IMG/VR virus record: IMGVR_UViG_3300025065_000002
Strand: one strand, 5' to 3'
DNA: 60,000 bases
Source of the DNA: a virus
Position 1 is the first letter of the stretch. Every line of letters starts with the position of its first letter. Below, one piece after another: positions 1 to 60,000 of this stretch. A program made the position numbers and the translations under genes. Below the pieces are notes generated by a model. That model worked only from the letters and a program-made list of their open reading frames with translations, was not told where the DNA came from and searched no databases.

Positions 1-127
1 CGTTTGCAGGCACGTATTGATGCAACCAATCGCGTTAATGCACCCGACTTACTTGCTGACTTTGAAGCCGACGCGCCTAATGTTCTGAGTAATGATCCAG
101 CGCCTACTAATGCTCAAACAGCCACGC
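1..127. repeat. Window-wrap duplicate of 59874..60000 (circular junction of a 59,873-bp genome)
   Basis: First 127 nt (cgtttgcaggcacgtattga...caaacagccacgc) compared base by base with the last 127 nt: identical. Confidence 0.97.
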
Positions 128-3100
128 AGCTAACCGATGAAAACCCTACGGTTAATATTCCAGCGCCTAAGAAAGCACCAAGAGAGCTGTCAGATAAAGC
201 GATGGTTCGTGAAATACAGAAGCCTACCACCAAAAATACTGAGACGGACTACAGGGCAGCGTTAAACTTATCAGAAGGTCAAAACCTTGGTCGCTTAATT
301 ATGTCTAGCGGCAGAGTTTTTGATGATGCCGTAGTAAAAAGCATGGACGATAAAGGCGTCACAGTAGAAGCAACGGTCAACGGTAAACGTGGATTGCATA
401 AGGGTTTGCAATACCAAACCGTGGATGCAGGTATTAACAACACAAAGAGTTATGCTGAGCAACAAGCAGCGCAGGAAAGCCAAGCAACCCATGAATCTAA
501 GCTTGCAGAGAAGTACGGCTTTAACGATAGTAATAAACTTGATCATGGCGAGCTATCTATCCCTAATCGCACAAAGAACATTGATAGTGAGCTTGATAGG
601 TATAAAGCAGATAAAGCAAAAATTGACGCTAAAAAACTTGATGAAGTTAAAACCAAGAACACTGAAAAGGCAGAAGCAGAGACAGAGCGCTTGTTGCCAA
701 TCAAAGAGCAGGCGCAAGCAGAATACAAGCAGTACGGCACAGCAATGGTCAACGCTTATAAAGATAAGCTTGAGGCGCAAGGGGTGAATGCGCGTGACTT
801 TATACGTGATGAAGCGAAATACAACCCCGAGTCATTCTTGAAGTTATCTAAAAAATTCCAAGAAGAGCAGCAAGCTGAACCTCAGTCTCAAGCGGAAAAA
901 TCGGAAGCGAAAGCCATTAAGCCGCAGTTGAATTGGACTAAAGATGCCAACGGCAGGAAGATATGGCGTGCTGATAACGGTATGATTATAACCGATGAAA
1001 GCATGGTTGTAGGCGGCGTCAGAAACAAATTTTTCTTTCTTTATGAAAACCAAACAGAGCGATATGCTGGCAACAATGTAGAGCGCGGTGAGTCTTTGTC
1101 TGAGGCAAAAGATAAGGCTGAAAGCCTGGTTAAATCAAAACCAGAAGCCGCGCCGGAAACCAAAAAACCGACTGCTAAAACTGAACCATCCGATAATCCT
1201 AGCGCCACTGGTGACTGGCAAACGCAAGTGAATGGCAATGAGTTCCGCATTAACGAAGACGGGATTACTGTACGCAAGCATGACCGAGTTGTTCATATTC
1301 GCGGTGCAAACTCTATAACCGCCAGCAAAAAAGCGAAAGAGCTTGCCAACCAAGATATTCGCGAGCTTCATTATATCGCTGCAAAAGAAGATGCTAGCGA
1401 CCCGTTTAGCGAGGGTTCTATCTGGCTTGATGGCAATGGGGATATGGTGCGCAAAAAAGGAACCAAGAAACCTACTGGCTCCTTACTGCCAATCCTAAAG
1501 CAAGCTGAAACTAAAACAGCACCTAAAAAAGCAGACAAGCCAGCCACGCCTACCGCACCAGTCGCAGAGATTGAGGATTTTGGAGAGAAGATAACTGGTG
1601 CGCGTAAAGACATGCAATCGTTCTATCAAAAAGAAATGACAGACGACGATATTATTAACCAGCCACTCAGCAAGATATGGCCCAAGAAAGACGTTGATGC
1701 CATCGAAGATACGCAGATGGCAGCACTTGCTACCGTTTTTCGTAGCGCCATACCAAGTAAACCAAGAAAAGGTTATAAGCTTGACAGATGGGTAGCGACT
1801 GTAAAAACTTTTCGTGGTGTTATGCAGAGTATGGTTAGCGACACTATTCCATTTGATAAAATTATGGATGGACTGATAGCAAGCGAGAGAATGAGTGAGT
1901 ATGCTTATCATGCAAAACTACTGGCGAAACTAGACAGGGAACAGTGGTCGCGCATTGATAAAGTTGATCCGCAGATAGGCTATCAAAAAAGAAACGAGGC
2001 TGGCGATTACATTCCCTTCGTTGGCTTTGCTGTGACCATCGACAAGAGAACGCATACTTTTAACACTGAGCAAAGAGATATATCAGAGATTATCGACAAG
2101 GTTAATAATCTACTGGGTGGCGAGGTCAAGACGCAAGCATTGAAATTTGACTTGTATAGTCGCGGTCGCGGCGATGCTAAGTCGTGGTTTATCACCCAAG
2201 CCAGCGACAAAGATAAGACGCCGCTTATTGAATTTAACGACAGGGATGCTGCTAGAGCGTTTCTAAAAGAAAACAACAGCGAGCTATCTGAGCTGTGGGA
2301 TCAACACAAAGAGCGCGTAAACGTCAAAAAATCTGACATGCGCTCGAATGTCAACCGTGAGCGCATCGGCCCCGACCATCGCGGCGGTCAAGACGTAACG
2401 ACCGAACAGTTTATGAACACGTTTGGCTTACGTGGCGGTCAGTTTGGTAACTGGGTAAAGCAAGGCGCCAACAGCAAAGACCGTCAGAATATTCTGAACG
2501 ATGCTTATGATGCCTTTATGGACTTGGCAGGCGTGCTTAATATTCCACCTGAAGCGATTGGCTTAGGCGGCAAACTTGCTATGTCGTTTGGTGCTCGCGG
2601 TAAAGGCCGCGCCATGGCGCACTATGAGCCGTCGCAAGTCATCATCAACCTAACCAAAACGCAAGGCGCAGGCTCGCTTGCTCATGAATGGTTCCATGCG
2701 TTAGACAATCACTTCACCTCGTTCCGTGATGATCCTAATCGCTTGACCAGTAAAGAGAATGCTTATATCACCTATAAGCCCGAGCCAATGCTGATTATGA
2801 AAGATCAGAACGGCAATCCTAGTCGTATGCGCCCAATAACAGAGATGCGGCGCAAGCAGTTGTACGAGATGAATAAGAACCGCGCCTACTTACCCGAAAA
2901 CTTTATGCCCGACCCTAATCATAAAGAAGGTGTGCGCCCACAAGTTGAAGTGGCTTTTGCAAACCTGGTAGAGACGCTAGACGAATCACCAATGAAAGCT
3001 CGAGCTGTCACCATTGATAAAGGTGCGCCTGATGGTTATTGGTCACGCATTATCGAGCGTGCAGCGCGAGCGTTTGAAAGCTATGTGATTAACAAGTTAG

Positions 3101-6100
3101 AGAAGCAGGGCGCGCGCAGCGACTTCTTAGCCAACATCACACCTGAAGATGCCTTCCCTCGTAATATGGACAGATACCCATACTTACTACAGAGTGAGAT
3201 GGCGCCAGTGGCAGAAGCGTTTGATAACTTATTTGCCACTCTTGACAGTAAAGCTTCGGAAGACGGTAACGGCAAAACACTTTTTAGTCGTGCCGGACAG
3301 TTAAATGAAGCGATAGATAAAGTGAAGGCTGGCGCGATTGGCAGTACGCAGACCACCCGCCAGCAAGTCATTGGCAAACTAAACGATAAGTTTGGTAAAG
3401 AAACCATTACTAAGCTCATGAGCGACGGCAAACTTGATATCAAAGTGCTGTCCGACTTTATGCAAGACGGCAAGCTGACTATCCCTAGTGATGTCGATGG
3501 TCTATACCACAACGGCAAGGCCACCTTGATTGCAGACAACCTATCTGACGATATGATTATCCCGACCTTCTTACATGAGCTTGGTGGTCATGGTGGGATG
3601 CAAGGCTTGATGGACAAGAAAGCCTACGACGCGCTGATGAGAGATTTTGACAGCCTGGTTAAAGCAGGCGACCCATTAGCCATGCAAGCAAAAGCGATGG
3701 CGGATAAAGTCGCACGTAATGAGCAAGACGCACTCGATGAGTATCTGCCGTACCTAATCACACTTACCTCACGCCAGCAAGCCAAGCAAGGCAAGGTGGC
3801 TGGCATGATCAATCGTATGGTCATGGCGATACGCTCATGGCTTAAAAATACTTTAGGCGTACCGATTACCATTAACTCGCAAGATATCTTGTCACTGGCT
3901 GAACGCATGGTAAACGAGATTGAAAAGCAAGGCTCGCTAGATAACATGGCTAATGCAGCGCCACAATTTAGCGACCCGAATATTCCTGATAAGCAGATGC
4001 AGGACGTGCGCGACCAGTATGAAAATACCGATCAGTGGATGACTGCGCCTAATGGCAAGCCGACCAATTTGACTGAAAACCAGTGGGTGCAAACAAGAAC
4101 ACCAGCCTTTAAAGAATGGTTTGGTGACTGGCAGAACGACCCGAAAAATGCGTCTAAGATAGTCGACGATAATGGTGAGCCAAGAATAACCTATCATCAA
4201 ACAGATGATACGTGGAATACTTTTGACAAGTCGAAAGCCAAGGCTGGCAAGCATGACAATGAAACGCCAACAGGTATATTCGTAAAGGGTAGCGATAGAG
4301 ATATAGGTATTGGTGAGAACTTAAACCAAATGCCTTTATTTACCAATATAAAAAATCCGCTTGAACTAAAAGATAGGCAGGCAGCAAAAAAGTATTATGA
4401 AAGTAATATTGATGGCTATGCTGATATTGTCGCAAGCATGAAAAAGGATGATGACACCTATAGTAAGGCACTCGATGAAGCTGAGAGCAGTATTCAGGCT
4501 GAGTTGAAAAGAAGGTATGAGACTGGCGACCGTTCGCAAAGCTCGAAAGAGTTGTTTAAAAAATCTAGGGATATCCTGAACGAGTGGACAGCCAGTCAAC
4601 AAGCCAACTCGCTCGCTGCTAAAAAACTAATCGATGACCATTTAGCTGAAAACGATATTGACGGTGTGGTTCTTGAAGCAGATGAAGGCTCTTTTGGTCG
4701 AGAAACCGATGCGATTATTGCCATCAATAACAACCAAATCAAGTCTGCCACAGACAATATAGGCACCTTCGATAACACTAACCCTGACATCCGCTTCAGC
4801 GACCCGAACGTGCCAGCCAAACAGCTTGATGATGTTCGTACTAAACACGAAGGCACAGATGAATGGATGAAGGCGCCTAACGGTAGCGATACCAATCTAA
4901 CCGAACAACAATGGTTACAAGTTCGCACGCCAGCGTTCAAGAAATGGTTTGGGGATTGGGAGGATGACGCAGAGAATGCAAGCAAAGTCGTAGATGAAAA
5001 TGGCGAGCCGATGGTGGTTTATCATGGCAGCCCAAAAAGATTCTATAACTTTGACATAGATAACCTTGGTAAGCGCACTAATAACTTGGGGCATTTCGGT
5101 AAGGGTTTCTATTTCACACCAGATATAGATACCGCGAATAGATATGCTGGATATCGTGACTCACAAGGAGATACAGCCTATAACGATTCATCAACCACTT
5201 ATCGCGGTTACTTAAACATTAAGAAACCATTTTACGATACTTACGAAAATCTAAAGCCATACCTCGATGGTGTTGGCGTGCAAAAAATAAAAGATGGTAT
5301 AGATAGGGATTATTTAGAACAGCATATTCTTAATTACGACCCAGCTTTACAGATATTAATTGACGATGTAAACAAATCTAAAAGATATCCTGATGGAGAT
5401 AACACTTACGAGCAATATAAGAAAAACGGTGGCAAGCTTTCGGATGAATATCAGTCAGGCGTGCCTTTAGATTATGATGGGCTAGCTGGGATTCTGTTTG
5501 GAAACATATACCTAACTATGAGTGAGCGTGAGATTGACAGCATTCAAAAAATGATGGGCGCGATACCAGATAAGTATATTAGCGTGGGTTTCTCAGGGCA
5601 ACCGACTTTAGCGGAAGCAACTAGCTATGGTCAGAAGGATAATGGCATTACTGAAAACATAATGTCAGATGGGTTTGATGGGGTGATACACGCACCTGAC
5701 GGTGTGAGCAAGAAGTATATTGAGTACGTCGCCTTTAACCCCAACCAAATCAAATCCGCCACCGACAACGCTGGCACGTTTGACAGCAATAACAACGACA
5801 TCCGTTACAGCCGCGCCGCTGGTATGAATGATCAGTTCGACCCACGCAATATCGCTAAAGAAACAGCGACAAGACTTTACGACTGGGCGAGCTCCGCACC
5901 TCCTGGCAAACTATCGTGGTGGCACAAGACTATTGGCACCATGTATAACCTAGCTCAGCGCAACCCATACTTTAAACCTGTCTTCGAGAACACTGAGAAG
6001 TTTATCAACGATGTGTCGTTCTACGCAGCCAAAGCCTCAGAGCTTGCGCCAAGACTATTGCCGCAGCTTGACTCACTGCGCGATATCACCAAGTCTGCTA

Positions 6101-8775
6101 TCGGTGCCAAGGATAATGAAGCGCTAAGTAAGCCCATTTTTGAAGGTACGTTATTGTGGGGCCGCGACCTTGATGGCAAAGCAGTGCTCATCAAGGACTG
6201 GCGTAAAAAGGTAATGGCAACCTCAAAGCAAGACCGCTTGCAGATGCTAAAAGACGCCAACCGTATCACGCCAGCACAGCTGCAACAGCTTGCCACGCTA
6301 AACAACATCCAAGCCAACCGCTTTATCAATGGCATTATCGATGAAGAAGTGAACGCTGGTCTTGTCTGGACTGACAACGAGCTACGGTCTAAGTTCAATC
6401 TTGACGATAAGCAGATTGAATTATACCGAGAGTTCCGCGCTACCACAGACAATAGCCTTGATAGCATGACGCGCTCAGACATGCTCAGACGTTTGGGTAA
6501 AGATGCGACCGCTATTGAAACGGCAGTCATGGAAGCTGGCACGTTACGCGAAGCGGTCTTTACTATCGAGCAGCATATTAATGGCTTGATACAAGCCAGC
6601 CCGAAAAAAGAGAAGTCGCTAAAGAATACGTTGAAAGATATCAAGGAATCACAATTCCGCACCAATAAGCTAATCGATGATGGTTATGCGCCATTATCAC
6701 GCTTCGGTCAATACACGGTCGATGTCGTCGATAAAGACGGCAACCGTGAATACTTTGGTATGTTTGAATCTGCTTATGAAGCGCGCAAGATGAAGGGCGA
6801 GATGGATGCGCTGTATGGCGATGATCAAGACTTCACTGTTACCCAAGGCGCACTATCGAAAGAAGAGTTTAAATTGTTCGCTGGCGTGACACCTGAAACC
6901 GCTGAATTGTTTGGTGAGATGATGGGGCTTGATGCCACTGGTGACAAAGCGGCTGACGATGCGTTCCAAGAGTACCTACGCCGCACCAAAAACAACCGTA
7001 GCACCATGAAGCGCTTGATGCACCGTAAAGGTATCAAAGGTTATTCTGAAGACGTTGGCCGTGTGCTGGCGAGTTTTGTGTACTCAAATGCGCGTCATAC
7101 CTCAGCTGCTTTAAACATGGGCAACCTTGACCGTAGTATTCAAGACATACCAAAAGGCGAGGGCCAGTTAAAAGATGCTGCAGTCAAACTGGCGGAGTAC
7201 ATTAAAAACCCACAAGAAGAAGGCAACGTCATTCGTGGCTGGATGTTCGCGCAATACTTGGGTGGCTCGATTGCTTCTGCTGCAGTCAACATTACCCAAC
7301 CTATTGCCGTGTCATTCCCTTATCTGTCACAGTTCGGCGGCGCGGTCAAAGCAGCAAGCCAGCTCAAACGCTCAAGCAGTGATTGGGCCAAGTCACTGAA
7401 GAACAAGAACAATGATCACTTTGAGGCAGGCTTACGCGACGCAATCGCACGCGCTGAAGCAGATGGCACACTGTCACCACAAGAGGTTCACAACCTACTC
7501 AAGCAAGCCAGCGGTAAAAACCCACTGAGCGCCGGTGATGGTACAAAAATTGGTAACGCCAAAGCGCTGGCAGGTAACACACTGTCTCGCGTCAGTCTGG
7601 CATGGGGTTCGTTATTTAGTTTGGCAGAACAGGTCAACCGCCGCGTAACTTTTGTGGCAGCGTATCGCATGGCAGTCGAGCAAGGCATGGATAATCCGGC
7701 AGAGTTTGCTACCAAGTCGATTAAAGAAACGCAGTTTGTTTATAACAAAGCGTCACGTATGAATTGGGGGCGGGGTGCTGTCGGTGGCACGCTCATGACG
7801 TTTAAGACTTATACCGTATCTTACATTGAGCTGATGCACAGACTATGGAATCAGGGCGAGAAGGGGTCTGTTGAACGTGCCCAAGGTCGCAAAGCAACCA
7901 TGATTATGCTTGGCGTCATGTTCCTACTATCAGGTTCAGGCGGTTTACCATTTATGGAAGATGCGGAAGACTTGATTGATGGTATTGGTCAAATTATGGG
8001 CTACAACTTATCATCGAAGAAAGCACGACAAGACTTTTTGGATGCGTGGTTTGGTGAGATGATAGGGGACTTTATGGAGTCAGGCGCATCGAGTTTACCG
8101 GGTTCACCGACCGATGTATCAGGTCGATTAGGTCTTGGTAACTTAATACCAGGTACCGGTATTTTTAGAGAGCGCACCAATAATACCCGTGACGTGCTTG
8201 AGGTTGTCGGTCCGGCTGGTGATTTTGTTGGACGTGTCGCAACTGGCACCAGAGATATTGCCAAAGGCGTGGCAAACTTAGACGCCACAAGTATCAAGAA
8301 AGGTACATTAGAGCTCGCACCTACCGCCGTTCGCAACGCGGTCAAAGGTATAAGTATGGGCACATCGGGTATTTATAAAGATACCAAAGGCTATAAAGTC
8401 ACTGACGTGTCACCCGTTGATGCGGCTTTTAAATTTGCAGGATTCCAGCCGCTAAAAGTATCTAAGATTCAAGAGGCTAACTATCTTGGTCAAACGAATA
8501 CTTCTTACTACAGTTTGCGCGCCTCAAATATCCGCGCACTGTGGGCGGCTGGCGTGGTCGAAGGCAATAGCAGTAAAGTTGCTGATGCACGCGCTGCAGT
8601 TGCAGACTGGAATAACAAAAATCCTGATCAAAAAATCATCATCAAGCCCACTGATATCGCTCGCCGTGTCCGTGAGATGAAGATGGATAAGTCAGAGCGC
8701 GTCACCAAGCTGGCACCAAAGTCAATGCGCGCACAAATGGCGTCAGACTTTGCACAAGTACGTGACGGTTTTTAA
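1..8775 (+). CDS. Giant polyvalent virion protein, C-terminal part (codons 959-3882)
   Basis: ORF track 4..8775 (its TTG start is an artefact of the window edge). TAA stop at 8773-8775 is followed by an intrinsic terminator. Recognisable motifs: DFGEKITGARKD, GGQFGNWV...SLAHEWFHALDNHF, FLHELGGHGG, two YH..(G)FYFT-type modules each ending NQIKSATDN.GTFD...DIR(F/Y)S, and GYAPLSRFGQYTV. Confidence 0.9.
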   Translation, partial: RLQARIDATNRVNAPDLLADFEADAPNVLSNDPAPTNAQTATQLTDENPTVNIPAPKKAPRELSDKAMVREIQKPTTKNTETDYRAALNLSEGQNLGRLIMSSGRVFDDAVVKSMDDKGVTVEATVNGKRGLHKGLQYQTVDAGINNTKSYAEQQAAQESQATHESKLAEKYGFNDSNKLDHGELSIPNRTKNIDSELDRYKADKAKIDAKKLDEVKTKNTEKAEAETERLLPIKEQAQAEYKQYGTAMVNAYKDKLEAQGVNARDFIRDEAKYNPESFLKLSKKFQEEQQAEPQSQAEKSEAKAIKPQLNWTKDANGRKIWRADNGMIITDESMVVGGVRNKFFFLYENQTERYAGNNVERGESLSEAKDKAESLVKSKPEAAPETKKPTAKTEPSDNPSATGDWQTQVNGNEFRINEDGITVRKHDRVVHIRGANSITASKKAKELANQDIRELHYIAAKEDASDPFSEGSIWLDGNGDMVRKKGTKKPTGSLLPILKQAETKTAPKKADKPATPTAPVAEIEDFGEKITGARKDMQSFYQKEMTDDDIINQPLSKIWPKKDVDAIEDTQMAALATVFRSAIPSKPRKGYKLDRWVATVKTFRGVMQSMVSDTIPFDKIMDGLIASERMSEYAYHAKLLAKLDREQWSRIDKVDPQIGYQKRNEAGDYIPFVGFAVTIDKRTHTFNTEQRDISEIIDKVNNLLGGEVKTQALKFDLYSRGRGDAKSWFITQASDKDKTPLIEFNDRDAARAFLKENNSELSELWDQHKERVNVKKSDMRSNVNRERIGPDHRGGQDVTTEQFMNTFGLRGGQFGNWVKQGANSKDRQNILNDAYDAFMDLAGVLNIPPEAIGLGGKLAMSFGARGKGRAMAHYEPSQVIINLTKTQGAGSLAHEWFHALDNHFTSFRDDPNRLTSKENAYITYKPEPMLIMKDQNGNPSRMRPITEMRRKQLYEMNKNRAYLPENFMPDPNHKEGVRPQVEVAFANLVETLDESPMKARAVTIDKGAPDGYWSRIIERAARAFESYVINKLEKQGARSDFLANITPEDAFPRNMDRYPYLLQSEMAPVAEAFDNLFATLDSKASEDGNGKTLFSRAGQLNEAIDKVKAGAIGSTQTTRQQVIGKLNDKFGKETITKLMSDGKLDIKVLSDFMQDGKLTIPSDVDGLYHNGKATLIADNLSDDMIIPTFLHELGGHGGMQGLMDKKAYDALMRDFDSLVKAGDPLAMQAKAMADKVARNEQDALDEYLPYLITLTSRQQAKQGKVAGMINRMVMAIRSWLKNTLGVPITINSQDILSLAERMVNEIEKQGSLDNMANAAPQFSDPNIPDKQMQDVRDQYENTDQWMTAPNGKPTNLTENQWVQTRTPAFKEWFGDWQNDPKNASKIVDDNGEPRITYHQTDDTWNTFDKSKAKAGKHDNETPTGIFVKGSDRDIGIGENLNQMPLFTNIKNPLELKDRQAAKKYYESNIDGYADIVASMKKDDDTYSKALDEAESSIQAELKRRYETGDRSQSSKELFKKSRDILNEWTASQQANSLAAKKLIDDHLAENDIDGVVLEADEGSFGRETDAIIAINNNQIKSATDNIGTFDNTNPDIRFSDPNVPAKQLDDVRTKHEGTDEWMKAPNGSDTNLTEQQWLQVRTPAFKKWFGDWEDDAENASKVVDENGEPMVVYHGSPKRFYNFDIDNLGKRTNNLGHFGKGFYFTPDIDTANRYAGYRDSQGDTAYNDSSTTYRGYLNIKKPFYDTYENLKPYLDGVGVQKIKDGIDRDYLEQHILNYDPALQILIDDVNKSKRYPDGDNTYEQYKKNGGKLSDEYQSGVPLDYDGLAGILFGNIYLTMSEREIDSIQKMMGAIPDKYISVGFSGQPTLAEATSYGQKDNGITENIMSDGFDGVIHAPDGVSKKYIEYVAFNPNQIKSATDNAGTFDSNNNDIRYSRAAGMNDQFDPRNIAKETATRLYDWASSAPPGKLSWWHKTIGTMYNLAQRNPYFKPVFENTEKFINDVSFYAAKASELAPRLLPQLDSLRDITKSAIGAKDNEALSKPIFEGTLLWGRDLDGKAVLIKDWRKKVMATSKQDRLQMLKDANRITPAQLQQLATLNNIQANRFINGIIDEEVNAGLVWTDNELRSKFNLDDKQIELYREFRATTDNSLDSMTRSDMLRRLGKDATAIETAVMEAGTLREAVFTIEQHINGLIQASPKKEKSLKNTLKDIKESQFRTNKLIDDGYAPLSRFGQYTVDVVDKDGNREYFGMFESAYEARKMKGEMDALYGDDQDFTVTQGALSKEEFKLFAGVTPETAELFGEMMGLDATGDKAADDAFQEYLRRTKNNRSTMKRLMHRKGIKGYSEDVGRVLASFVYSNARHTSAALNMGNLDRSIQDIPKGEGQLKDAAVKLAEYIKNPQEEGNVIRGWMFAQYLGGSIASAAVNITQPIAVSFPYLSQFGGAVKAASQLKRSSSDWAKSLKNKNNDHFEAGLRDAIARAEADGTLSPQEVHNLLKQASGKNPLSAGDGTKIGNAKALAGNTLSRVSLAWGSLFSLAEQVNRRVTFVAAYRMAVEQGMDNPAEFATKSIKETQFVYNKASRMNWGRGAVGGTLMTFKTYTVSYIELMHRLWNQGEKGSVERAQGRKATMIMLGVMFLLSGSGGLPFMEDAEDLIDGIGQIMGYNLSSKKARQDFLDAWFGEMIGDFMESGASSLPGSPTDVSGRLGLGNLIPGTGIFRERTNNTRDVLEVVGPAGDFVGRVATGTRDIAKGVANLDATSIKKGTLELAPTAVRNAVKGISMGTSGIYKDTKGYKVTDVSPVDAAFKFAGFQPLKVSKIQEANYLGQTNTSYYSLRASNIRALWAAGVVEGNSSKVADARAAVADWNNKNPDQKIIIKPTDIARRVREMKMDKSERVTKLAPKSMRAQMASDFAQVRDGF
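2359..3135 (+). other. LPD1-type HExxH (metallopeptidase-like) module of the giant protein
   Basis: FGLRGGQFGNWVKQGANSKDRQNILNDAYDAFMDLAGVLNIP...AMSFGARGKGRAMAHYEP..INLTKTQGAGSLAHEWFHALDNHF. The HEWFH codons are at 2683-2697, followed by ERAARAFESYV. Confidence 0.65.
3967..4800 (+). other. ART-like module 1 (apparently degenerate)
   Basis: FSDPNIPDKQMQDVR...TPAFKEWFGDWQNDPKNASKIVDDNGEPRITYHQT...GIFVKG...DAIIAINNNQIKSATDNIGTFDNTNPDIRFS. It is collinear with module 2, but the Tyr (GFYFT) and Glu (IEYVAF) positions are replaced. Confidence 0.55.
4801..5811 (+). other. ART-like module 2 (H-Y-E-type signature intact)
   Basis: DPNVPAKQLDDVR...TPAFKKWFGDWEDDAENASKVVDENGEPMVVYHGS (5020-5031)...GKGFYFT (5101-5118)...YIEYVAFNPNQIKSATDNAGTFDSNNNDIRYS (Glu codon at 5722-5724). 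Confidence 0.6.
6691..6708 (+). other. PLxRFG motif of the giant protein
   Basis: Codons cca tta tca cgc ttc ggt encode PLSRFG within IDDGYAPLSRFGQYTVDVVD. Downstream are hydrophobic segments and AEQVNRRVTFVAAYRMA. Confidence 0.6.
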
Positions 8776-9382: not shown

Positions 9383-10026
9383 AAATGCCAGAATCAAACC
9401 AAGAAGTAACAAATACAGAAGGTAAAATCACTGGCGAAACCTCCGATGGTTATCATACTTTTAATGAGTTATACCATCATCGGATGGTTTTGTTCTCGAT
9501 TATCTGCAATAGCAATAAAGACAAGGCTTTTAAGTCGAAGCTACACGCTGACGGTACAATGTTCGATGACTACTTTATTGTTGGAGTCAATACGCCTGAA
9601 GGTCACTACACCTATCATTACCACATAAATAATTGGGATCGCTTCCAAGTCAAAGAGCTTGAACATGCGCCTGAATGGGATGGCCACCAGCCTTGCGATA
9701 TTGACAGACTTTTAACGCTAGAAAGTAGTGGCGACTGTCCTATTGAAGAAGGTGATGAGTTTGATTTTGGCTCAGCTATTTACTTGATGCAAAAGGGCGA
9801 GCGTGTCATGCGTGCTGGCTGGAATGGCAAAGGCATGTTTATTTACATCGTGCCAGCAGCAAGTTATCCAGCACAGCGCAATGCCAAGGGCGTATTAGTA
9901 GGTGACTATCCCAATGACATGGTTCCGTACAGCTCTTATATCGCTTTGAAGTCTGCTAGTGGCGAAGTGGTGCCATGGACTATTAGCCAGTCAGACGCAC
10001 TCGCAACCGACTGGTGCCTCGCCTAA
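9379..10026 (+). CDS. Fusion protein: WDGH-like N-terminal domain plus DUF2829 (Tad2-like) C-terminal domain
   Basis: N-terminal part: SDGYHTFNELYHHRMVLF...HADGTMFDDYFIVGV.TPEGHYTYHYH...PEWDGH. C-terminal part (about 9757-10023): FDFGSAIYLMQKGERVMRAGWNGKGMFIYIVP...PYSSYIALKSASGEVVPWTISQSDALATDW, which matches the DUF2829 consensus (GWNGKGM...PW..SQ.D.LA.DW). Confidence 0.78.
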   Translation: MKMPESNQEVTNTEGKITGETSDGYHTFNELYHHRMVLFSIICNSNKDKAFKSKLHADGTMFDDYFIVGVNTPEGHYTYHYHINNWDRFQVKELEHAPEWDGHQPCDIDRLLTLESSGDCPIEEGDEFDFGSAIYLMQKGERVMRAGWNGKGMFIYIVPAASYPAQRNAKGVLVGDYPNDMVPYSSYIALKSASGEVVPWTISQSDALATDWCLA

Positions 10027-10051
10027 ATAACACGCAGCAAAGGACAAATCA

Positions 10052-10618
10052 ATGACCATTAGATCAGCCTTCGGCAATGGCATTATCGCAATGGGCGGTT
10101 ATGTTGCCACCAAAGCCGCCGCATTATCTGCCTCAGATATCACCACGCCGTCGGTTGTTGAGGTGGTGCCAAAGAATAACGTGTACCTATTTCAAATGGC
10201 TGACCCATACCTATTGGTCGGCTTCACGGTTCCCAACTGGCTTGGCGTAGTGTTCTTTGTGATAGCGCTTATCTTTGGCACTATCGCTGGCATGAACCAA
10301 GAAACACCGATTGACGGTAAGTTTAAACGCGCTTATCTCAAGCCGTTTTATAGCTTGTCGTTTGGCATATTAGTGACCTTGTTTATCGTGCCAGCTTTTT
10401 ACCCTGACATTACTATCTGGAGCCTCATTGTTCCGGCTGGGTTTTTTGCCGCCATTGGTTCAGTGGTTATTTATTACGTGATTGCCTTCTTTACTGGCGA
10501 AAAATTATGGGCGCTTATCAATACAGAGGCCCACAGCTCTGCGCCTGACATGATAAAAGCTGTCTTTGGTTACTTCAAAGGTATCTTGATGGCGTTTATC
10601 GGGAGGAATGATAAATGA
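10052..10618 (+). CDS. Multi-pass membrane protein of the lysis cassette (holin/antiholin candidate)
   Basis: AAAGGA RBS before ATG 10052. There are 4-5 hydrophobic helices (e.g. WLGVVFFVIALIFGTIAG, FGILVTLFIVPAF, LIVPAGFFAAIGSVVIYYVIAFF). The stop overlaps the next start. Confidence 0.65.
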   Translation: MTIRSAFGNGIIAMGGYVATKAAALSASDITTPSVVEVVPKNNVYLFQMADPYLLVGFTVPNWLGVVFFVIALIFGTIAGMNQETPIDGKFKRAYLKPFYSLSFGILVTLFIVPAFYPDITIWSLIVPAGFFAAIGSVVIYYVIAFFTGEKLWALINTEAHSSAPDMIKAVFGYFKGILMAFIGRNDK

Positions 10619-10950
10619 TCATCTTTAACTTAGCGTTTTTTAATACCTTGCTTGCTCTCATTGGCATCATCGGCTGGAGCTGGGTATGGTGGTTTGGCAA
10701 GTACAAGACTGGCTGCAATGCTCGCATTCAGATGGGCGTCATCTTACTTGGCGTCGTGTGGGTGATGTTGTTTTTGGCTGATACTGTTCAGGACTTGGTG
10801 CCAACCAGTTTAACCGTGGTCAGTCGAGCGCTGGTATTAATTGGCTTATGGTGCTGTATGCCACTGCTTAAAAAGCAAGTGGAAACGCTAGAGCCCAGTG
10901 CGCCAGAAGTCAAGATTAAAAAAATTCGTATTAGAGGTAAATCATTATGA
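10615..10950 (+). CDS. Holin candidate (three TM helices, charged C-terminus)
   Basis: Hydrophobic segments are FNLAFFNTLLALIGIIGWSWVWWF, MGVILLGVVWVMLFL and ALVLIGLWCCMPLL, with the tail KIKKIRIRGKSL. It sits immediately upstream of the endolysin with an ATGA overlap. Confidence 0.6.
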   Translation: MIIFNLAFFNTLLALIGIIGWSWVWWFGKYKTGCNARIQMGVILLGVVWVMLFLADTVQDLVPTSLTVVSRALVLIGLWCCMPLLKKQVETLEPSAPEVKIKKIRIRGKSL

Positions 10951-11819
10951 CAAGCCAAGCCGTTACCGATACTGCTATTTTTGCAAAACTGCGTGAGCAT
11001 CTAGCGCCAACCAAGTTGTCGCAACTGATTGTCGATATCACCAACCAGGCCATGACTGATAATACGTTTCGTGGTGAACTCATTGAGCGCTTAGAGCTGT
11101 CAGTTAAAGAGGTTGAGATTGATGCTGGCAAGCGGCCTTATAATTTGACGATTGAAACACTTAAAAAAGTTGATCCAAACGTCAATCCAGCGGCGGTCGA
11201 AATACTTTTAAGACTGGGGCCACAGTACGGCATTATTACCAAGAAGCAAATGTGCTCATTTATCGCTAACTGTATTCATGAGTCAAGCGCATTCAATGCT
11301 AAACGCGAGAGTTTTAATTATCGCCCTGAGCGCTTGCGAGCTGTATTCCCTAGCAGGATTAAGTCTATTGCAGACGCCAAGGCGCTACTGGCAAAAGGGC
11401 AGGTCGCTGTTGCCAACTATTTGTATGGTGGTCGCTATGGCAATCGCCCTAACACCAATGACGGCTGGCATTATCGCGGTGGCGGCTGGACTGGGAACAC
11501 TTTCCGCGATAATTATTTTATTTTGCAAAATATGACCGGCATTAAGTTTGGGGACAATCCTAAACTGATTGAAGACATGGAAAACGCGGCCATCGCTGCA
11601 ATGGAATTTTGGCGTATCAATGGCTGCAATGAAAAGGCTGAAAAGATTAATACTTACTCGAACGGCTATACGCTTAATACACTAAACAGTAAAGGCATTG
11701 AAACCAAAGACTATAAGATGAATTATGGCGCTCGTATTATCCGTCAAACGGTCAATGGTGGCTTGAATGGTTATACCGAGTTTTGCCAAGCGCTTGAGAA
11801 GTGTTTGCGGTATTTATAG
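10947..11819 (+). CDS. Endolysin, glycoside hydrolase family 19 (chitinase-like) with about 90-aa N-terminal extension
   Basis: CIHESSAFNAKRESFNY (two Glu with GH19 spacing), ANYLYGGRYGN and GWHYRGGGWTGNTFRDNY. It follows the holin candidates. Confidence 0.8.
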   Translation: MTSQAVTDTAIFAKLREHLAPTKLSQLIVDITNQAMTDNTFRGELIERLELSVKEVEIDAGKRPYNLTIETLKKVDPNVNPAAVEILLRLGPQYGIITKKQMCSFIANCIHESSAFNAKRESFNYRPERLRAVFPSRIKSIADAKALLAKGQVAVANYLYGGRYGNRPNTNDGWHYRGGGWTGNTFRDNYFILQNMTGIKFGDNPKLIEDMENAAIAAMEFWRINGCNEKAEKINTYSNGYTLNTLNSKGIETKDYKMNYGARIIRQTVNGGLNGYTEFCQALEKCLRYL

Positions 11820-11850
11820 CTAAACATAGCTAACTTTAGCTATGTTTAGC
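11819..11850. repeat. Perfect 14-bp inverted repeat (gctaaacatagcta / tagctatgtttagc) overlapping the endolysin stop
   Basis: Arms at 11819-11832 and 11837-11850 with a 4-nt spacer. It contains ATAGCTA units related to the ATAGTTA units at 12471-12622. Confidence 0.8.
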
Positions 11851-11901
11851 TGCTATAATAGCTACACAAAACAAAATAGCCTCCATATCTGTTATGTTTT
11901 C

Positions 11902-11931
11902 GCCCATCTATTAATTTAGATGGGCTTTTTT
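11902..11931 (+). terminator. Intrinsic terminator ending the late transcript
   Basis: Stem gcccatcta / tagatgggc (9 bp), loop ttaatt, then a T6 run. Confidence 0.85.
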
Positions 11932-11943
11932 ATTGCCAAAATT

Positions 11944-11995
11944 TTGCGTTCATGAACGCAAGAACGCAAATGAACGCAAATGAACGCAAAAACGC
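11944..11995. repeat. TGAACGCAA array: 18-bp perfect palindrome plus three further direct copies
   Basis: ttgcgttcatgaacgcaa (11944-11961) is followed by gaacgcaaa, tgaacgcaaa, tgaacgcaaa and aacgc. Confidence 0.85.
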
Positions 11996-12038
11996 TGAAA
12001 CCCTTATAGATCAGCCGGGAGCCATAAGAATAGCAATA

Positions 12039-12113
12039 TCTAAACTTTGTCTAAGTTGGTCTAAGTTGGTCTAAAACCACACCTCAATGTCTAAACTACC
12101 CTAAAAGTTAGAC
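12039..12113. repeat. Helically phased (G)TCTAA array
   Basis: TCTAA or CCTAA units start at 12039, 12050, 12060, 12070, 12090 and 12100 (10-bp register, including ttggtctaag x2 then ttggtctaaa). An inverted ttagac lies at 12108-12113. Confidence 0.8.
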
Positions 12114-12154
12114 GTAAAAAAGCCGCTAGATATTAGCCTTTCTAGCGGCTTTTT
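12114..12154. terminator. Bidirectional intrinsic terminator-like hairpin
   Basis: An A-run, then stem gccgctaga (12122-12130) / tctagcggc (12141-12149), then a T5 run. Confidence 0.7.
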
Positions 12155-12449
12155 GCCTCACAATACCTTAGTACAACTTTACGGGTATCAATCGGATGAC
12201 TCATGCGCGGTGAGAAGTATAAGGAAACGCACATCATCTGCCAGTGTTTTTGCATGTCGTAGCACCGCTGGTCTGACTACGTTCGCTCTATCTGGAAACC
12301 CAGCCCTAGCGACTAGGGATTACTGCGTCAATCAACTACAAGGAATGGTGATAATCATAGCACGCTATTACCTAACACACCATAGACACACAAAAATAAA
12401 ACAACTTAAATTATATCTTTTAAATCATGCGCTTGTTAAACCGTGTGCG

Positions 12450-12467
12450 CTCCCGCCATCTCCACCA
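12450..12467 (+). other. attP core candidate: mimic of the 3-prime end of tmRNA (ssrA)
   Basis: ctcccgccatctccacca matches 17 of 18 nt of my recollection of the E. coli ssrA 3-prime end (CTCCCGCCAGCTCCACCA). It covers the T-stem 3-prime half CCCGC, the acceptor strand and ACCA. No complete T-arm or tRNA-like body lies upstream. Confidence 0.55.
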
Positions 12468-12470
12468 TAT

Positions 12471-12622
12471 ATAGTTAGACAATGTAAAACATAGTTAAAC
12501 AAAGCAAGACGTAAAAACCTACTAAACCCCTTAAAACACTACGTTTCAAGGGGTTTTTAGTGCCTAAGCCCATGTTAATAAAGCATAGTTGAGCATTGAC
12601 AAACATAGTTAAGCATAGTATT
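12471..12622. repeat. ATAGTTA arm-type repeat family
   Basis: atagtta(g/a)a at 12471, 12491 and 12605; atagttga at 12585; atagtatt at 12615. All lie between the core and int. Confidence 0.7.
12527..12558 (+). terminator. Intrinsic terminator-like hairpin downstream of the tmRNA-like core
   Basis: Stem cccctt (12527-12532) / aagggg (12548-12553), then a T5 run. The loop is long (15 nt). Confidence 0.5.
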
Positions 12623-12624
12623 AA
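12596..12624 (+). promoter_or_regulatory. Candidate int promoter
   Basis: TTGACA (12596-12601), a 17-nt spacer, then TATTAA (12619-12624). It overlaps two ATAGTTA repeats. Confidence 0.45.
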
Positions 12625-12667
12625 TGCACACAACACACACACGTATTGACACACGGAATTGGCAACC

Positions 12668-13813: not shown

Positions 13814-13834
13814 AAAAAGGCGCATTAAGCGCCT
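13812..13834 (-). terminator. Intrinsic terminator of the leftward early operon
   Basis: On the minus strand: stem ggcgc / gcgcc with a 5-nt loop, followed by a U7 run (A-run 13812-13818 on the plus strand). Confidence 0.7.
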
Positions 13835-14025
13835 TCCTCGTCTGTAATATCTTCATCGGAAAATTCTATCTCTTTTATTCTATCGACCGTTGATTGCTTC
13901 CACCATTTTAACTGCTTATTGGTTCTGTCTGGCGGGTACTGGTCCATATAGTTATCGCGAAAGGTGCGAGGGTCTTTAAACCCTAACTCTCTTGCTGTTT
14001 CTGTCATACTCAACCATCTAATCAT
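13825..14025 (-). CDS. Excisionase/DNA-binding protein candidate
   Basis: A small protein adjacent to int and convergent with it. It has an HTH-like segment MTETARELGFKDPRTFRDNYMD and an acidic tail. Confidence 0.55.
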   Translation of the reverse strand: MIRWLSMTETARELGFKDPRTFRDNYMDQYPPDRTNKQLKWWKQSTVDRIKEIEFSDEDITDEEGA

Positions 14026-14037
14026 TATCGCTCTCCA

Positions 14038-14184
14038 TCAAGCCATATTAAAAGAAACACTTGCTTCAACATCAAACTCAGTTTGGCAGTCGTTGCAAGT
14101 CGCGGTCAGTATTTCACCGTCCATAACCAACACGCTACTTACTTCATAACCACCGCCACATTCCGGACAATTAGCATCACCCAT
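14038..14184 (-). CDS. 48-aa zinc-ribbon protein (below the ORF-track length cut-off)
   Basis: My translation is MGDANCPECGGGYEVSSVLVMDGEILTATCNDCQTEFDVEASVSFNMA, with CxxC...CxxC. An AGGAG RBS lies 5 nt upstream. The ORF fills the gap between two operon genes. Confidence 0.55.
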   Translation of the reverse strand: MGDANCPECGGGYEVSSVLVMDGEILTATCNDCQTEFDVEASVSFNMA

Positions 14185-14193
14185 ATCAATCTC

Positions 14194-15485: not shown

Positions 15486-15497
15486 TGGTAATGCCTC

Positions 15498-16418: not shown

Positions 16419-16481
16419 GATTTTTACCTTTAAGTAGAAGTAGGGCAGCTTACGGCTGCAAATCGGTATTCCAAAAATTAA

Positions 16482-17042: not shown

Positions 17043-17043
17043 C

Positions 17044-56999: not shown

Positions 57000-59900
57000 A
57001 TGAGTGATTATAAAGACGACAAAGACCCAGCATTGGAAGCAGCTCGCCAGCGCAGCCAACAGATAGCTCAATTCATTAAAGAGAATCGCGCCGCACCAAA
57101 CAAAGGGATTGGTGGGCATATACGTGACCTAGGATTAACTGCATTATCGGGCGCGGTATCTGTTCCGGAATTGGCTGTTGGTTTGGCTGACATTCCAACT
57201 GGAGGCCGTGTCGGTAAGTTTTTAGAGAACGAGGACGGCGCGTTTGGCTTTCGCCCGGGCGAGGCGAAGGCGGCAATCGCTGGCGCTAAAACAAAACGCT
57301 CGCAAGAACAGTTGCAAGAGTTTACCGATACCGAAGGACTTGGTGGTAAAGTTGGTTACGCACTAAAAAACCCTTCACTAATTACCAATACTGTAGTGGA
57401 ATCCTTGCCGTCTATGTTTGCAGGCGGCGTCATTGGTCGCGGACTAGGTGCAGCTGCTAAGGGCTTATCGCCCGTTGCCGCTGGTGCGTTAGGTGAAGGT
57501 GCAGTCGGCGCTGGCCTTGCCGCTGAACAGATACGTCAGCAAACTGACGATGGCTTATTGACTGGCAAGCAAGCAGGGCTTGCCGCTGCTACTGGTGCTA
57601 CTACCGCAGGCTTTGGTTATGCTGGTGGTCGCCTTGCTAAGAAACTTGGTATCGGTGATATTGATACCATCGTCGCTGGTGGTGGTCGTACTGCCACACC
57701 TGGAAGCGAGATTGTTGGTAGCAACGCCGTCAGCAAAGGTATCGCCAGACGTGCAGCGGAAGGCGCACTTACTGAAGGCTTACTAGAAGAGTTACCGCAA
57801 TCGGTATCTGAGACCATCTTACAGAACGAAGCGTTAGGTCGCCCGCTTAATGAAGGCGTGACCGATGCCGCCGCGCTTGGCTTATTATCCGGTGCTGCTA
57901 TGGGCGCTGGCGCTGGCATGTTTGCCCGTAATCGCAGACCAGAAGACAGAATTACACCCACTGAAGATATGGGGCAAGAGGACGCCGACTACGGTCCAAC
58001 CAATCCTAATAATCCGCTATCTGGCAGAGGTCTTCCTAATCCTACACTATTACTTGAAAACCAAGCAGCGCCGCAACTTGGCTTTCAAGGCAGAGCCAGT
58101 AATCAGTTTAACGCAGGACCAGACGGCGAAGTATTCACAGGCGACCAGTACAATGAGTATCTAGCAGGTCAGCAAGAGCGTGCCCGTAATGCGCGTGATG
58201 CTGGCATGCAGCCTAGAAATTTTGAGGATGTGACGCAATCGCCGCAAGGTTACGATCAGTTTGGCAATGACCCACGCTTGCCAGCGCCAGACGGTACGGA
58301 TTTTACCGCCAGTCAAGACGGTCAGGTTTATGGCCGTGATGATATTAATACCAGGTTAAGCCAAGAACGTGATGCCGCAGCCGAGCGCCGAGCACGCATT
58401 GCTCGCGGTGAAATCTTAGATATAACGCCAGTACCACAAGCGCCAAAACCGTCTGAGCTAATGGGACTTGACCCGAACAAAGGCAGTCTAAGTGCGGCCG
58501 CTGCCATTGCGGTGGACACGGGCGCGAGTTCAGTGGCGGCAGATTTTGAGCAGGCGAGTGCGCAATCTAGTGAGAATCCAGCGACACGCATGGCTGGTTT
58601 GGTTGAAGTTGAAACGCAAGAGCAGCCGACAGGTAGTAAGTGGCTGCAAAGTATGCGCACCAGTCTAGCTACTGCTGATATCGACAACGGCACTTATCAA
58701 GCGCTATCGCAATCGATTGAAGCTGACCCTAAGTCAGTACCAGAACGCGCACGCCTTAAAAAAGCCATTGATGCGCTGCCAAAAAAACCTGAACCTACCG
58801 CCAAAAAGATCGACCCTAAAGCTCGCGTTATTGATGAAGCTAAAGCGCAGTCTGTGGCCTACAACCCTAGAGGTGACAAAATACCGCTACAGTTTGATGT
58901 GGTTGATGCAAGTGAGCTTTTATCTAGCCATAGCAACAACTTTGTAGAAAACCCTGATTACCCGCAGCAATATCAGCCACGCGATAGAGCGGATGCTGGA
59001 TATCAAGCGCAAGTGCTTGATATCGTCAAAAAATTTAACCCCGAACTACTAGGTAAGGATAACTCTGTCAATGCTGGTAGTCCTATTGTTGGGCGTGACG
59101 ACAACCTAGTTGAGTCTGGCAATGGTCGTACTATCGCTATCCGTAGAATGTACGAGTCTGGCAAGGGAGATGCCTATCGTCAATTTGTAAATAAAAGTGC
59201 TGAAGAGTTTGGTCTTGATGCCAATGCTATCAATCAGATGCAGCAACCAGTCCTTGTACGACGCAATAATTCCGATATGGATAGAGAGCAGTTTGCCTTA
59301 CGTGCTAATGCCCCGACTGGCGCAGCTATGAGTAGCAGTGAACGTGCGAAAGCAGACGCTAAGATATTGCCAAACGCTGACCTCCTAGAGCTTGATAGCA
59401 ATGGTAGTTTAAACCTAAAAGGCAGTTATAAATTTACTCAAGCCTTCATCGGCTCGCTTGATAAAAATGAAGTAAATGAGCTTGTACTATCTAATGGAGA
59501 GTTGTCACAGACTGGGCAGAACCGAGTGTCAGGTGCACTACTTCAAAATGCTTACGGCTCATCAAAGCTAACCAAAGCAGTGACAGAAGATATTGATTCC
59601 AGCGCTAAGAACGTGCTTAAAACCTTGGTTGATAAAGCGCCACAAATAACCAAGATTAATCAATCTATTAAGGAAGGCAATCGTGAAGCCGATACTCTAT
59701 CAGAAGATATAAAGACTGCTGCTGAAACTTATATTGATCTTGTGGAGAGTGGCGCCAATATTGACGACTATCTAAATATGGAAGATATGTTTGGAGAGGG
59801 TATTAGCCCACAATCCAAAGAGATTGTCCGAGATTTCTATAGCAATGCACGCTCAGCAACTAGGATGGGGTCACGTTTGCAGGCACGTATTGATGCAACC

Positions 59901-60000
59901 AATCGCGTTAATGCACCCGACTTACTTGCTGACTTTGAAGCCGACGCGCCTAATGTTCTGAGTAATGATCCAGCGCCTACTAATGCTCAAACAGCCACGC
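57000..60000 (+). CDS. Giant polyvalent virion protein, N-terminal part (continues at nt 1 across the circular junction; full gene 57000..59873 + 1..8775 = 11,649 nt, 3,882 aa)
   Basis: ATG 57000 is preceded by an in-frame TAA at 56991 and by AAGG upstream. My manual translation of this frame to nt 60000 found no stop. The ORF track lists no ORF ending in this frame, as expected for an ORF that runs off the window. The frame matches ORF 4..8775 through the 127-nt overlap. The N-terminus has Gly/Ala-rich hydrophobic stretches (SMFAGGVIGRGLGAAAKG..., GLAAATGATTAGFGYAGG). Confidence 0.88.
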   Translation, partial: MSDYKDDKDPALEAARQRSQQIAQFIKENRAAPNKGIGGHIRDLGLTALSGAVSVPELAVGLADIPTGGRVGKFLENEDGAFGFRPGEAKAAIAGAKTKRSQEQLQEFTDTEGLGGKVGYALKNPSLITNTVVESLPSMFAGGVIGRGLGAAAKGLSPVAAGALGEGAVGAGLAAEQIRQQTDDGLLTGKQAGLAAATGATTAGFGYAGGRLAKKLGIGDIDTIVAGGGRTATPGSEIVGSNAVSKGIARRAAEGALTEGLLEELPQSVSETILQNEALGRPLNEGVTDAAALGLLSGAAMGAGAGMFARNRRPEDRITPTEDMGQEDADYGPTNPNNPLSGRGLPNPTLLLENQAAPQLGFQGRASNQFNAGPDGEVFTGDQYNEYLAGQQERARNARDAGMQPRNFEDVTQSPQGYDQFGNDPRLPAPDGTDFTASQDGQVYGRDDINTRLSQERDAAAERRARIARGEILDITPVPQAPKPSELMGLDPNKGSLSAAAAIAVDTGASSVAADFEQASAQSSENPATRMAGLVEVETQEQPTGSKWLQSMRTSLATADIDNGTYQALSQSIEADPKSVPERARLKKAIDALPKKPEPTAKKIDPKARVIDEAKAQSVAYNPRGDKIPLQFDVVDASELLSSHSNNFVENPDYPQQYQPRDRADAGYQAQVLDIVKKFNPELLGKDNSVNAGSPIVGRDDNLVESGNGRTIAIRRMYESGKGDAYRQFVNKSAEEFGLDANAINQMQQPVLVRRNNSDMDREQFALRANAPTGAAMSSSERAKADAKILPNADLLELDSNGSLNLKGSYKFTQAFIGSLDKNEVNELVLSNGELSQTGQNRVSGALLQNAYGSSKLTKAVTEDIDSSAKNVLKTLVDKAPQITKINQSIKEGNREADTLSEDIKTAAETYIDLVESGANIDDYLNMEDMFGEGISPQSKEIVRDFYSNARSATRMGSRLQARIDATNRVNAPDLLADFEADAPNVLSNDPAPTNAQTAT
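58855..59160 (+). other. ParB/sulfiredoxin-fold-like segment of the giant protein
   Basis: Translated segment reads ...DVVDASELLSSHSNNFVENPDYPQQYQPRDRADAGYQAQVLDIV...SPIVGRDDNLVESGNGRTIAIRRMY. The QPRDR and GNGRT motifs resemble the ParB-like domains described in phage and conjugative-element polyvalent proteins. Recognised by eye only. Confidence 0.5.
59874..60000. repeat. Window-wrap duplicate of 1..127
   Basis: Identical to nt 1-127. It lies inside an open reading frame and preserves that frame. Confidence 0.97.

Follow-up and report, generated by a model that had tools for sequence, protein, structure and literature searches.

Why does one phage protein carry two ADP-ribosyltransferase (ART)-like modules side by side, one with a complete histidine-tyrosine-glutamate (H-Y-E) signature and the other with only its histidine? 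The question is raised by positions 3967-5811 of the window, that is, of the whole stretch of 60,000 nucleotides (nt) from the IMG/VR virus record IMGVR_UViG_3300025065_000002. An initial annotation, made from the letters of the DNA, had described two collinear modules here, the first of them degenerate, and had explained them by an old tandem duplication that was retained. The findings presented here suggest a different history. We consider it probable, at roughly 0.8, that these are two adjacent ART-PolyVal domains of a polyvalent protein, that module 1 represents a distinct subtype and that the two were paired by cassette shuffling.

The interval translates in frame 1 without a stop into the sequence quoted in the initial annotation. 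It is not a separate gene, since both modules lie within a single open reading frame (ORF) at window positions 1-8775 that is open at its 5' end. Over their whole length, module 1 (3967-4800) and module 2 (4801-5811) can be aligned by BLASTP (E=3e-39), with 30% identity overall. Protein identity amounts to about 69% in the N-terminal leader and 71% in the tail, and the middles align only with long gaps. The motifs are located at 4192-4203 (YHQT), 4273-4287 (GIFVK), 5020-5031 (YHGS), 5104-5115 (GFYF) and 5719-5736 (IEYVAF), and the His and Glu codons of module 2 at 5023 and 5722, so that the collinear arrangement, the motifs and the codon positions first reported all held. At the DNA level, the leaders are 67.7% identical over 155 nt and the tails 75.7% over 70 nt, the third codon positions of the leaders are 34% identical, which is near saturation, and no similarity was detectable between the module cores. 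The strong divergence of the two DNA copies that had been noticed by eye is thus real, with only leader and tail still detectably similar.

Both modules were recognised by the Pfam model of the ART-PolyVal family (PF18760; Tox-ART-HYD2 clade; Iyer, Burroughs, Anand, de Souza and Aravind 2017, PMC5512222). Specifically, module 1 scored 52.2 bits (amino acids (aa) 67-268) and module 2 scored 85.1 bits (aa 65-327), in each case over positions 1-140 of the 140-position profile; both values exceed the family's gathering score (31.2 bits). Judged by these profile scores, the ART-PolyVal membership of both modules is solid, and their description as ART-like was well founded. Module 2 showed additional sub-threshold matches over its His-Tyr half, to DUF3990 (E=1e-5) and to the catalytic domain of poly(ADP-ribose) polymerases (PARPs), PF00644 (16.9 bits, E=0.0047, aa 66-120 only, below the gathering score of 26.7). 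No match of module 1 to PF00644 was found, and NCBIfam provided no model for either module. The two subfamily profiles proved homologous when compared with hhalign (probability 100%, E=2.9e-48), and this alignment pairs Phe105 of module 1 with Tyr104 of module 2 and Ala249 with Glu308, the same catalytic positions that had been paired by eye.

AlphaFold2 models were built on the subfamily alignments and reached a predicted local distance difference test (pLDDT) of 91 and a predicted template modelling score (pTM) of 0.87 for module 1, and a pLDDT of 84 and a pTM of 0.78 for module 2. Both models show the strands in ART order: the His closes strand 1 and the aromatic residue sits on strand 2, strands 3 and 3' come next, and a helical insert, strand 4 (DGV), strand 5 and strand 6 (QIKS) follow. 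The model of module 1 matched predicted viral structures named 'PolyVal ADP-Ribosyltransferase' in BFVD (E=1.5e-19, query TM-score 0.71). The link of both modules to the wider ART fold is drawn from Pfam and Iyer 2017 (PMC5512222), from the order of the motifs and from weak structural matches.

On its sequence, module 2 is a complete PARP/diphtheria-toxin-like H-Y-E domain. It shares with this group, of which tankyrase is an example, the order HG[ST], G-x-Y-F, A..Y and E-Y-[VI]-x-[FY]. His75 is found in predicted strand 73-77, Tyr104 in strand 103-106 and Ala112..Tyr115 (A..Y) in the helix after strand 2, and Glu308 starts strand 308-311. When module 2 was aligned with 59 relatives (n=60), the His was present in 58/60 sequences, the strand 2 position was Tyr in 51 and Phe in 7, the A..Y helix position was Tyr in 49 and Phe in 8, and the strand 5 position was Glu in 42, Gln in 5 and Asp in 2. 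The triad read in module 2 by the initial annotation (His75, Tyr104 and Glu308) therefore occupies columns that are conserved among relatives. A wider set of 337 canonical domains kept the His in 321 and showed Tyr in 184, Phe in 87 and Trp in 33 at the strand 2 column, so that the norm of the family is an aromatic residue and not strictly Tyr. Glu or Asp occupied the aligned acidic column in about 40% of these domains and the neighbouring column was acidic in a further share, indicating that the triad is not universal even in ordinary family members.

Compared with the family as published, module 2 has the His on strand 1, the Tyr on strand 2 and an acidic residue on strand 5. Iyer 2017 (PMC5512222) gives a single H-Y-D configuration, whereas Glu takes the place of the Asp in module 2 and in most of its relatives. 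The 'strand 5 Asp' of that study might conceivably be the Asp of the shared (Y/F)DG(V/I) motif (Asp232 in module 1, Asp293 in module 2), which falls on predicted strand 4 and, being conserved in both subtypes, is non-discriminating. In contrast to PARPs, module 2 lacks a regulatory or helical domain, and a large, unrelated insert of helices separates its strands 3' and 4. We predict that module 2 is an active H-Y-E transferase, which would carry out ADP-ribosylation of a host target dependent on nicotinamide adenine dinucleotide (NAD+).

In module 1 the His is retained (His77, predicted strand 74-79), and Phe105 stands in place of the Tyr and Ala249 in place of the Glu, as had been read from the translation. 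Compared with PARPs, module 1 is without the Tyr, the second Tyr and the Glu. The second-Tyr helix after strand 2 is absent from the model, which shows a D-I-G loop in its place, and Asp239-x-G-S-F-G-Arg245 forms the loop before strand 5. The different helical insert that had been ascribed to module 1 corresponds to a hairpin at aa 151-228. These features are not private to the window. The signature of the full-length homologues reads YHQT ... AG..D..TP.GIF.K ... DIG..G..QM.LYANI.NP...(D/N)R up to the helical insert, and YDGV...D.GSFGR.T..YIAF..NQ(V/I)KSATDN after it. An alignment of 58 such sequences contained 15 invariant positions and about 20 more that were at least 90% conserved. Similarly, among 222 unique domains of this YHQT type, His77 was found in 220, Gln78 in 215, Thr79 in 218, Asp97 in 219, Phe105 in 218 (Tyr in only 3), Lys107 in 221, Arg137 in 220, Asp232 in 219, Asp239 in 218 and Arg245 in 197 (plus Lys in 10). 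The column aligned with the catalytic Glu was Ala in 113, Thr in 91 and Ser in 13, and it was acidic in 0 of the 217 aligned members. The column before Ala249 holds Asp, Lys or Glu and is thus not conserved as an acid.

This conservation places module 1 in a subclade of ART-PolyVal that is separate and strongly conserved, here called the YHQT/GSFGR subtype. The alignments and models indicate that the nicotinamide side of the pocket is rebuilt, that the His side is kept and that new polar residues are fixed, a combination that points to a changed function under selection and not to decay. The view of module 1 as degenerate did not survive this comparison, since it keeps the listed invariants of a large subclade whose members are often the sole ART domain of their protein. 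This subclade (His, Phe and Ala/Thr, with its own Lys/Asp/Arg set and hairpin) is not singled out in the texts consulted.

The distribution of the subtype was analysed by searching a profile of it against 1.84 billion cluster representatives (clusters at 50% identity). At E<=1e-3 the search retrieved 20,624 proteins, and 1,658 remained at E<=1e-30; many had a length of 2,000-5,500 aa. Domains were classified with two hidden Markov models, one for the YHQT and one for the canonical subtype. The YHQT type stood alone, as the sole ART domain, in 43 of the 80 viral loci and 91 of the 128 representative proteins. Both types co-occurred in about 10 loci and 19 representatives, in the orders Y-c, c-Y, c-c-Y and c-Y-c (Y, YHQT; c, canonical), and adjacent pairs were YHQT-then-canonical in 11 cases and canonical-then-YHQT in 7. 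Among all proteins fetched, exactly one full-length YHQT-type domain was present in 240 and two were present in 0, and canonical ART-PolyVal domains occurred in 1-12 full-length copies per protein, with 11-12 in P0338, P0339 and P0348. YHQT-type domains were also fused to Zeta toxin, PBECR nucleases, NUDIX, MuF-C, LPD3, LPD23 and even one R-S-E ART domain. This distribution fits an autonomous, non-redundant effector module. The point of modest interest is that a degenerate-looking copy represents a large, single-copy subtype with a remodelled active site, present in thousands of mobile-element proteins.

Each module consists of a leader, a core and a tail (Table 1). The Pfam match in module 1 begins at aa 67, and the leader that precedes it forms a three-helix N-terminal extension in the AlphaFold2 model (helices 6-18, 37-42 and 46-52, pLDDT 93-97). 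The leader element (4036-4164 and 4867-4992) reads APNG..TNL.E.QW..VRT..FK.WFGDW(E/Q)ND..NASK. Its columns are near-invariant among the relatives of module 2, and in relatives the leader is more strongly conserved than the catalytic core, with many columns at 90% or more in 60 sequences, a conservation that may be inflated as the relatives were collected by shared words. The leader of either module matched no other Pfam family. At the other end, the complete tail motif of module 1, NQIKSATDNIGTFDNTNPDIRFS, begins at nt 4732 and overlaps the final strand of the core. After strand 258-260 module 1 is modelled without regular secondary structure. In both tails (4732-4800 and 5743-5811) the QIKSA strand is followed by a conserved TDN.GTFD..N.DIR(F/Y)S, predicted to be without regular structure, and the DPN of the next module comes directly after DIR(F/Y)S. 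Speculatively, this conserved disordered boundary might be a place where the protein is processed, or a motif at which its own putative HExxH peptidase docks.

How did the two modules come to stand together? An ancient tandem duplication within the gene, after which module 2 stayed catalytic and module 1 lost its Tyr and Glu to become a degenerate, non-catalytic paralogue, would account for modules that are adjacent and collinear, for the leader and tail blocks that they have in common and for the missing Tyr and Glu equivalents of module 1. Comparison with other proteins makes this history, which the initial annotation had favoured, very unlikely. All fetched proteins were pooled with the locus ORFs and searched by BLASTP, with a cut-off of E<=1e-3 for the cores. 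The module 1 core matched 161 other sequences of the pool, the best being the YHQT-type P0001 (41% identity), and was 33-41% identical to YHQT-type domains from unrelated elements, but the module 1 and module 2 cores gave no mutual match. The tails ranked only 86th and 93rd for each other. Several unrelated leaders were more identical to the leader of module 2 (up to 80%) than that of module 1 was. Since unrelated proteins match the leader nearly as well as the partner module does, leader and tail are best regarded as family-wide boundary elements and not as evidence of a private duplication. The retention of the subclade invariants in module 1, and the fact that the YHQT subtype is usually the sole ART domain of a giant protein, also speak against duplication followed by decay.

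Further evidence came from Shewanella phage vB_SbaS_Y11 (OQ927986.1), the nearest sequenced relative. Its giant 'methyltransferase' (WIF21962.1, 3372 aa) is orthologous to the protein of the window, its gene (9640-19758 in locus L081) has the same place between tail genes and the endolysin, and its N-terminal, central and C-terminal parts are 58-72% identical to those of the window protein. At the position of the two modules, Y11 has just one ART-PolyVal domain. It is of a third type (LYHGS...GMFFT...VVVSF; aa 2090-2400), shares only about 31% overall identity with module 1 and lies between flanks that are 61-72% identical to the window protein. Related phages thus differ in the number and type of their ART cassettes, and one ART domain of another type at this place speaks against a retained duplication. 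Megablast of positions 3000-7000 against phages returned Y11 only, and only over the upstream 900 nt, with no DNA match in the ART region. Scanning a genome collection with both modules revealed distant ART-PolyVal relatives in many phyla and no close prophage relative with the pair. Insertion or exchange of cassettes between conserved leader and tail boundaries fits these data better than duplication and later decay. In the comparison with Y11, the ART position behaves as a swappable cassette between conserved flanks, which bears on how injected effectors diversify.

Several points weigh against two shuffled ART-PolyVal domains as an account of the locus. The leaders are reciprocal best matches in the pool with 119 bits, which also counts in favour of duplication; the margin is small, as unrelated proteins reach 115-119 bits, and a minor contribution may have come from local history that the leaders share or from their homogenisation. 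Module 1 departs from its own subclade by a Gly117 to Glu change with an extra Leu119 (4315-4323), unique among the 58 sequences, and by changes at the near-invariant Tyr231 (to Ile, 4657-4659), Thr84 (to Asn, 4216-4218) and Ala126 (to Thr, 4342-4344). This copy may be functionally shifted, weakened or impaired even if its subclade as a whole has activity. Packaging into virions, injection and processing by proteolysis, discussed below, are proposed by analogy only. In addition, comparison with solved structures gave little. The best enzyme matches of module 2 in a Foldseek search of the PDB were tankyrase PARP domains, yet below significance (E=0.05-0.3), and module 1 had no significant match there, the best being a RES toxin (E ~1). 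Its matches were mostly coiled-coil or helical proteins because the hairpin insert attracts them. A PDB sequence search with the whole protein and both subfamily profiles gave no meaningful match, and the searched literature contained no biochemically characterised ART-PolyVal domain. For both modules, NAD+ use is accordingly putative.

The weak matches to solved structures could also mean that the ART resemblance is spurious and that a tail or ejection protein contains the modules as repeated linker or structural segments, without a nucleotide-binding fold. Indeed, the top Foldseek PDB match of module 2 was not an enzyme, it was the cyanophage A4 pre-ejectosome chain 9k3a_B (E=1.7e-3, probability 0.98). 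We rejected this match as evidence for a role in ejection, as a TM-score of 0.26 and a root-mean-square deviation of 20 Å do not represent a true superposition. It probably reflects the helical insert of module 2, and the A4 paper describes ejection proteins with lytic transglycosylase and M23 peptidase domains and without an ART domain. A spurious resemblance is scarcely credible against PF18760 scores that lie well above the gathering score for both modules, secondary DUF3990 and PARP matches over the His-Tyr half, and a conserved His, aromatic residue and Glu that fall on predicted strands 1, 2 and 5 in ART order.

If module 1 is neither a decayed duplicate nor a chance resemblance, what would it do? 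We infer that it has its own function, which would not be redundant with that of module 2. The initial annotation had left a choice between a non-catalytic paralogue and a different activity. The latter is the better half of that proposal, albeit still a guess, and the half that assumed a degenerate duplicate did not stand. Within our overall model the chances are close to even, perhaps a shade lower, that module 1 has a distinct activity which depends on a nucleotide and involves either a non-canonical active site or another substrate. Such an activity would use the retained His77 and Phe105 with Lys107, Asp239 and Arg245. The more specific proposal that the whole YHQT/GSFGR subclade is a functionally distinct enzyme whose active site has moved, with Lys107, Asp239 and Arg245 replacing the Tyr/Glu machinery, is tentative and on balance improbable. 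If true, it would imply a chemistry or substrate class other than protein ADP-ribosylation, for example nucleic acids, small molecules or NAD+ cleavage, and would explain why polyvalent proteins have a single YHQT copy in contrast to the arrays of canonical domains.

Alternatively, the YHQT subclade could be a conserved pseudoenzyme that binds NAD+, ADP-ribose or a host target, or whose hairpin serves as a scaffold or packaging element, which is possible but rather unlikely. Three of the four canonical elements of the nicotinamide site are missing (Tyr to Phe; second Tyr and its helix absent; Glu to Ala/Thr), the coiled-coil-like hairpin insert is prominent and one copy per protein would suit a structural role. 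However, the near-invariance of Gln78, Thr79, Asp97, Lys107, Arg137, Asp239 and Arg245 exceeds what is usual for a purely structural module. The YHQT type is frequently the sole ART-type domain of its protein and is fused to effectors as diverse as Zeta toxin, PBECR nucleases, NUDIX and an R-S-E ART, which is effector-like behaviour. Moreover, mono-ADP-ribosylation is still catalysed by PARP-family enzymes of the H-Y-I/L types, such as PARP10, in which the Glu is absent, so that loss of the Glu alone does not imply inactivity. The presence of both subtypes side by side in one phage protein makes this locus a convenient natural test case.

The protein that contains the modules extends beyond the end of the window. 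The first 127 nt (1-127) are identical to the last 127 nt (59874-60000), which identifies the window as a genome of about 59,873 bp that is circular or was assembled as a circle, with the giant gene spanning the junction. A 1002-codon ORF from 56994 exits the 3' end, and its final 42 aa are the first 42 aa of window frame 1. The gene thus starts at about 57000 and ends at 8775, and the giant protein totals about 3,880 aa. Its N-terminal part is 58% identical to aa 7-1069 of the Y11 protein. The gene is located after large tail-region genes (48190-54836) and before the endolysin (10947-11819), a late/virion-gene neighbourhood with the same gene order in Y11, and the genome also codes for the large terminase, portal protein, major head protein and integrase. 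The giant protein is a very large polypeptide with several unrelated effector or enzymatic domains and large polyvalent-protein-associated domains (LPDs), and it has the architecture and context of the polyvalent proteins described by Iyer 2017 (PMC5512222). The usual partners of ART-PolyVal in that study, DdrB-ParB, HExxH peptidase-like motifs, LPD1 and LPD5, are also present in the window protein (Table 1). According to the same study, ART is the modifying domain most often found in polyvalent proteins, each of which can have 1-12 copies, with 12 in one Pseudomonas prophage protein. The ART-PolyVal family and multi-copy ARTs in polyvalent proteins were therefore already known, and the window adds another member and not a new system.

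By analogy with polyvalent proteins (Iyer 2017, PMC5512222) and with T4 Alt, the giant protein would be made late together with virion proteins, be packaged and enter the host with the phage DNA. Its own HExxH peptidase region might cut it into pieces, and the ART effector domains would then modify host macromolecules with NAD+ early in infection. Phage T4 Alt serves as the functional model, an ART that is delivered with the phage DNA and modifies host proteins early (Iyer 2017, PMC5512222). It differs as a member of the R-S-E (Alt/VIP2) clade that shows no homology at the level of the active site and forms no part of a polyvalent protein. From its motif and by analogy with Iyer 2017 (PMC5512222), the HEWFH/LPD1 region is presumed to represent the zincin-like metallopeptidase region that polyvalent proteins typically have. 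The HExxH region of the giant protein did not match any peptidase model.

Table 1. Features of the giant polyvalent gene and of its two ART-PolyVal modules in the window
Feature	Position	Strand	Basis or description
Polyvalent gene, N-terminal part	57000..60000	+	open from 56994, first Met codon 57000; continues at position 128
DdrB-like ParB domain	~58869-59267	+	PF18763 ddrB-ParB, E=9.7e-33, aa 624-756
Remainder of giant ORF, phage polyvalent protein	1..8775	+	2924 codons plus stop; after tail genes, before lysis genes
LPD5 (large polyvalent-protein-associated domain 5)	2065..2421	+	PF18799, E=1e-19, aa 689-807
HEWFH (HExxH) motif	2683-2697	+	motif position; within region 2683..3249
LPD1	3016-3249	+	PF18796, E=7.8e-14
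Second HExxH-like motif, HELGGH	3574-3591	+	motif position
Module 1 leader (aa 1-66)	3967..4164	+	APNG..TNLTE.QW.Q.RT..FK.WFGDW; outside Pfam ART-PolyVal model
Module 1 ART-PolyVal core, YHQT/GSFGR subtype	4165..4770	+	PF18760 52.2 bits; conservation; AlphaFold2; BFVD
Module 1 key codons	His77 4195-4197; Gln78+Thr79 4198-4203; Asp97 4255-4257; Phe105 4279-4281; Lys107 4285-4287	+	alignment
Module 1 key codons, continued	Arg137 4375-4377; Asp239 4681-4683; Arg245 4699-4701; Ala249 4711-4713	+	alignment
Module 1 helical hairpin insert (aa 151-228), between strands 3' and 4	4417-4650	+	AlphaFold2
Module 1 tail end (..GTFDNTNPDIRFS), boundary with module 2	4771..4800	+	translation, alignment
Module 2 leader (aa 1-64)	4801..4992	+	three-helix element as in module 1; pLDDT 97-98
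Module 2 ART-PolyVal core, canonical H-Y-E	4993..5781	+	PF18760 85.1 bits; conservation; AlphaFold2
Module 2 key codons	His75 5023-5025; Tyr104 5110-5112; Tyr115 5143-5145; Asp293 5677-5679; Glu308 5722-5724	+	alignment
Module 2 lineage-specific helical insert (aa 148-289)	5242-5667	+	AlphaFold2 model
Module 2 tail end (..DIRYS)	5782..5811	+	translation, alignment
PLxRFG ('tail-700') C-terminal domain	6682..8727	+	NF032893, E=2.8e-200, aa 2228-2909; PLSRFG motif at 6691-6708

Two minor observations concern the surroundings of the modules. Upstream, the stretch at 2362-2721 (aa 788-907) matched the NCBIfam model of the CLCA_X family (NF041907) with 120.7 bits, below the cutoff of 260. The match overlaps the end of LPD5 and the stretch up to and including the HEWFH motif, and this stretch may be a metallopeptidase-like region. 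Just downstream of the lysis region, a gene at 12659-13813 resembles tyrosine integrases (phrog_1, E=1.6e-49), and because of this gene the phage is probably temperate.

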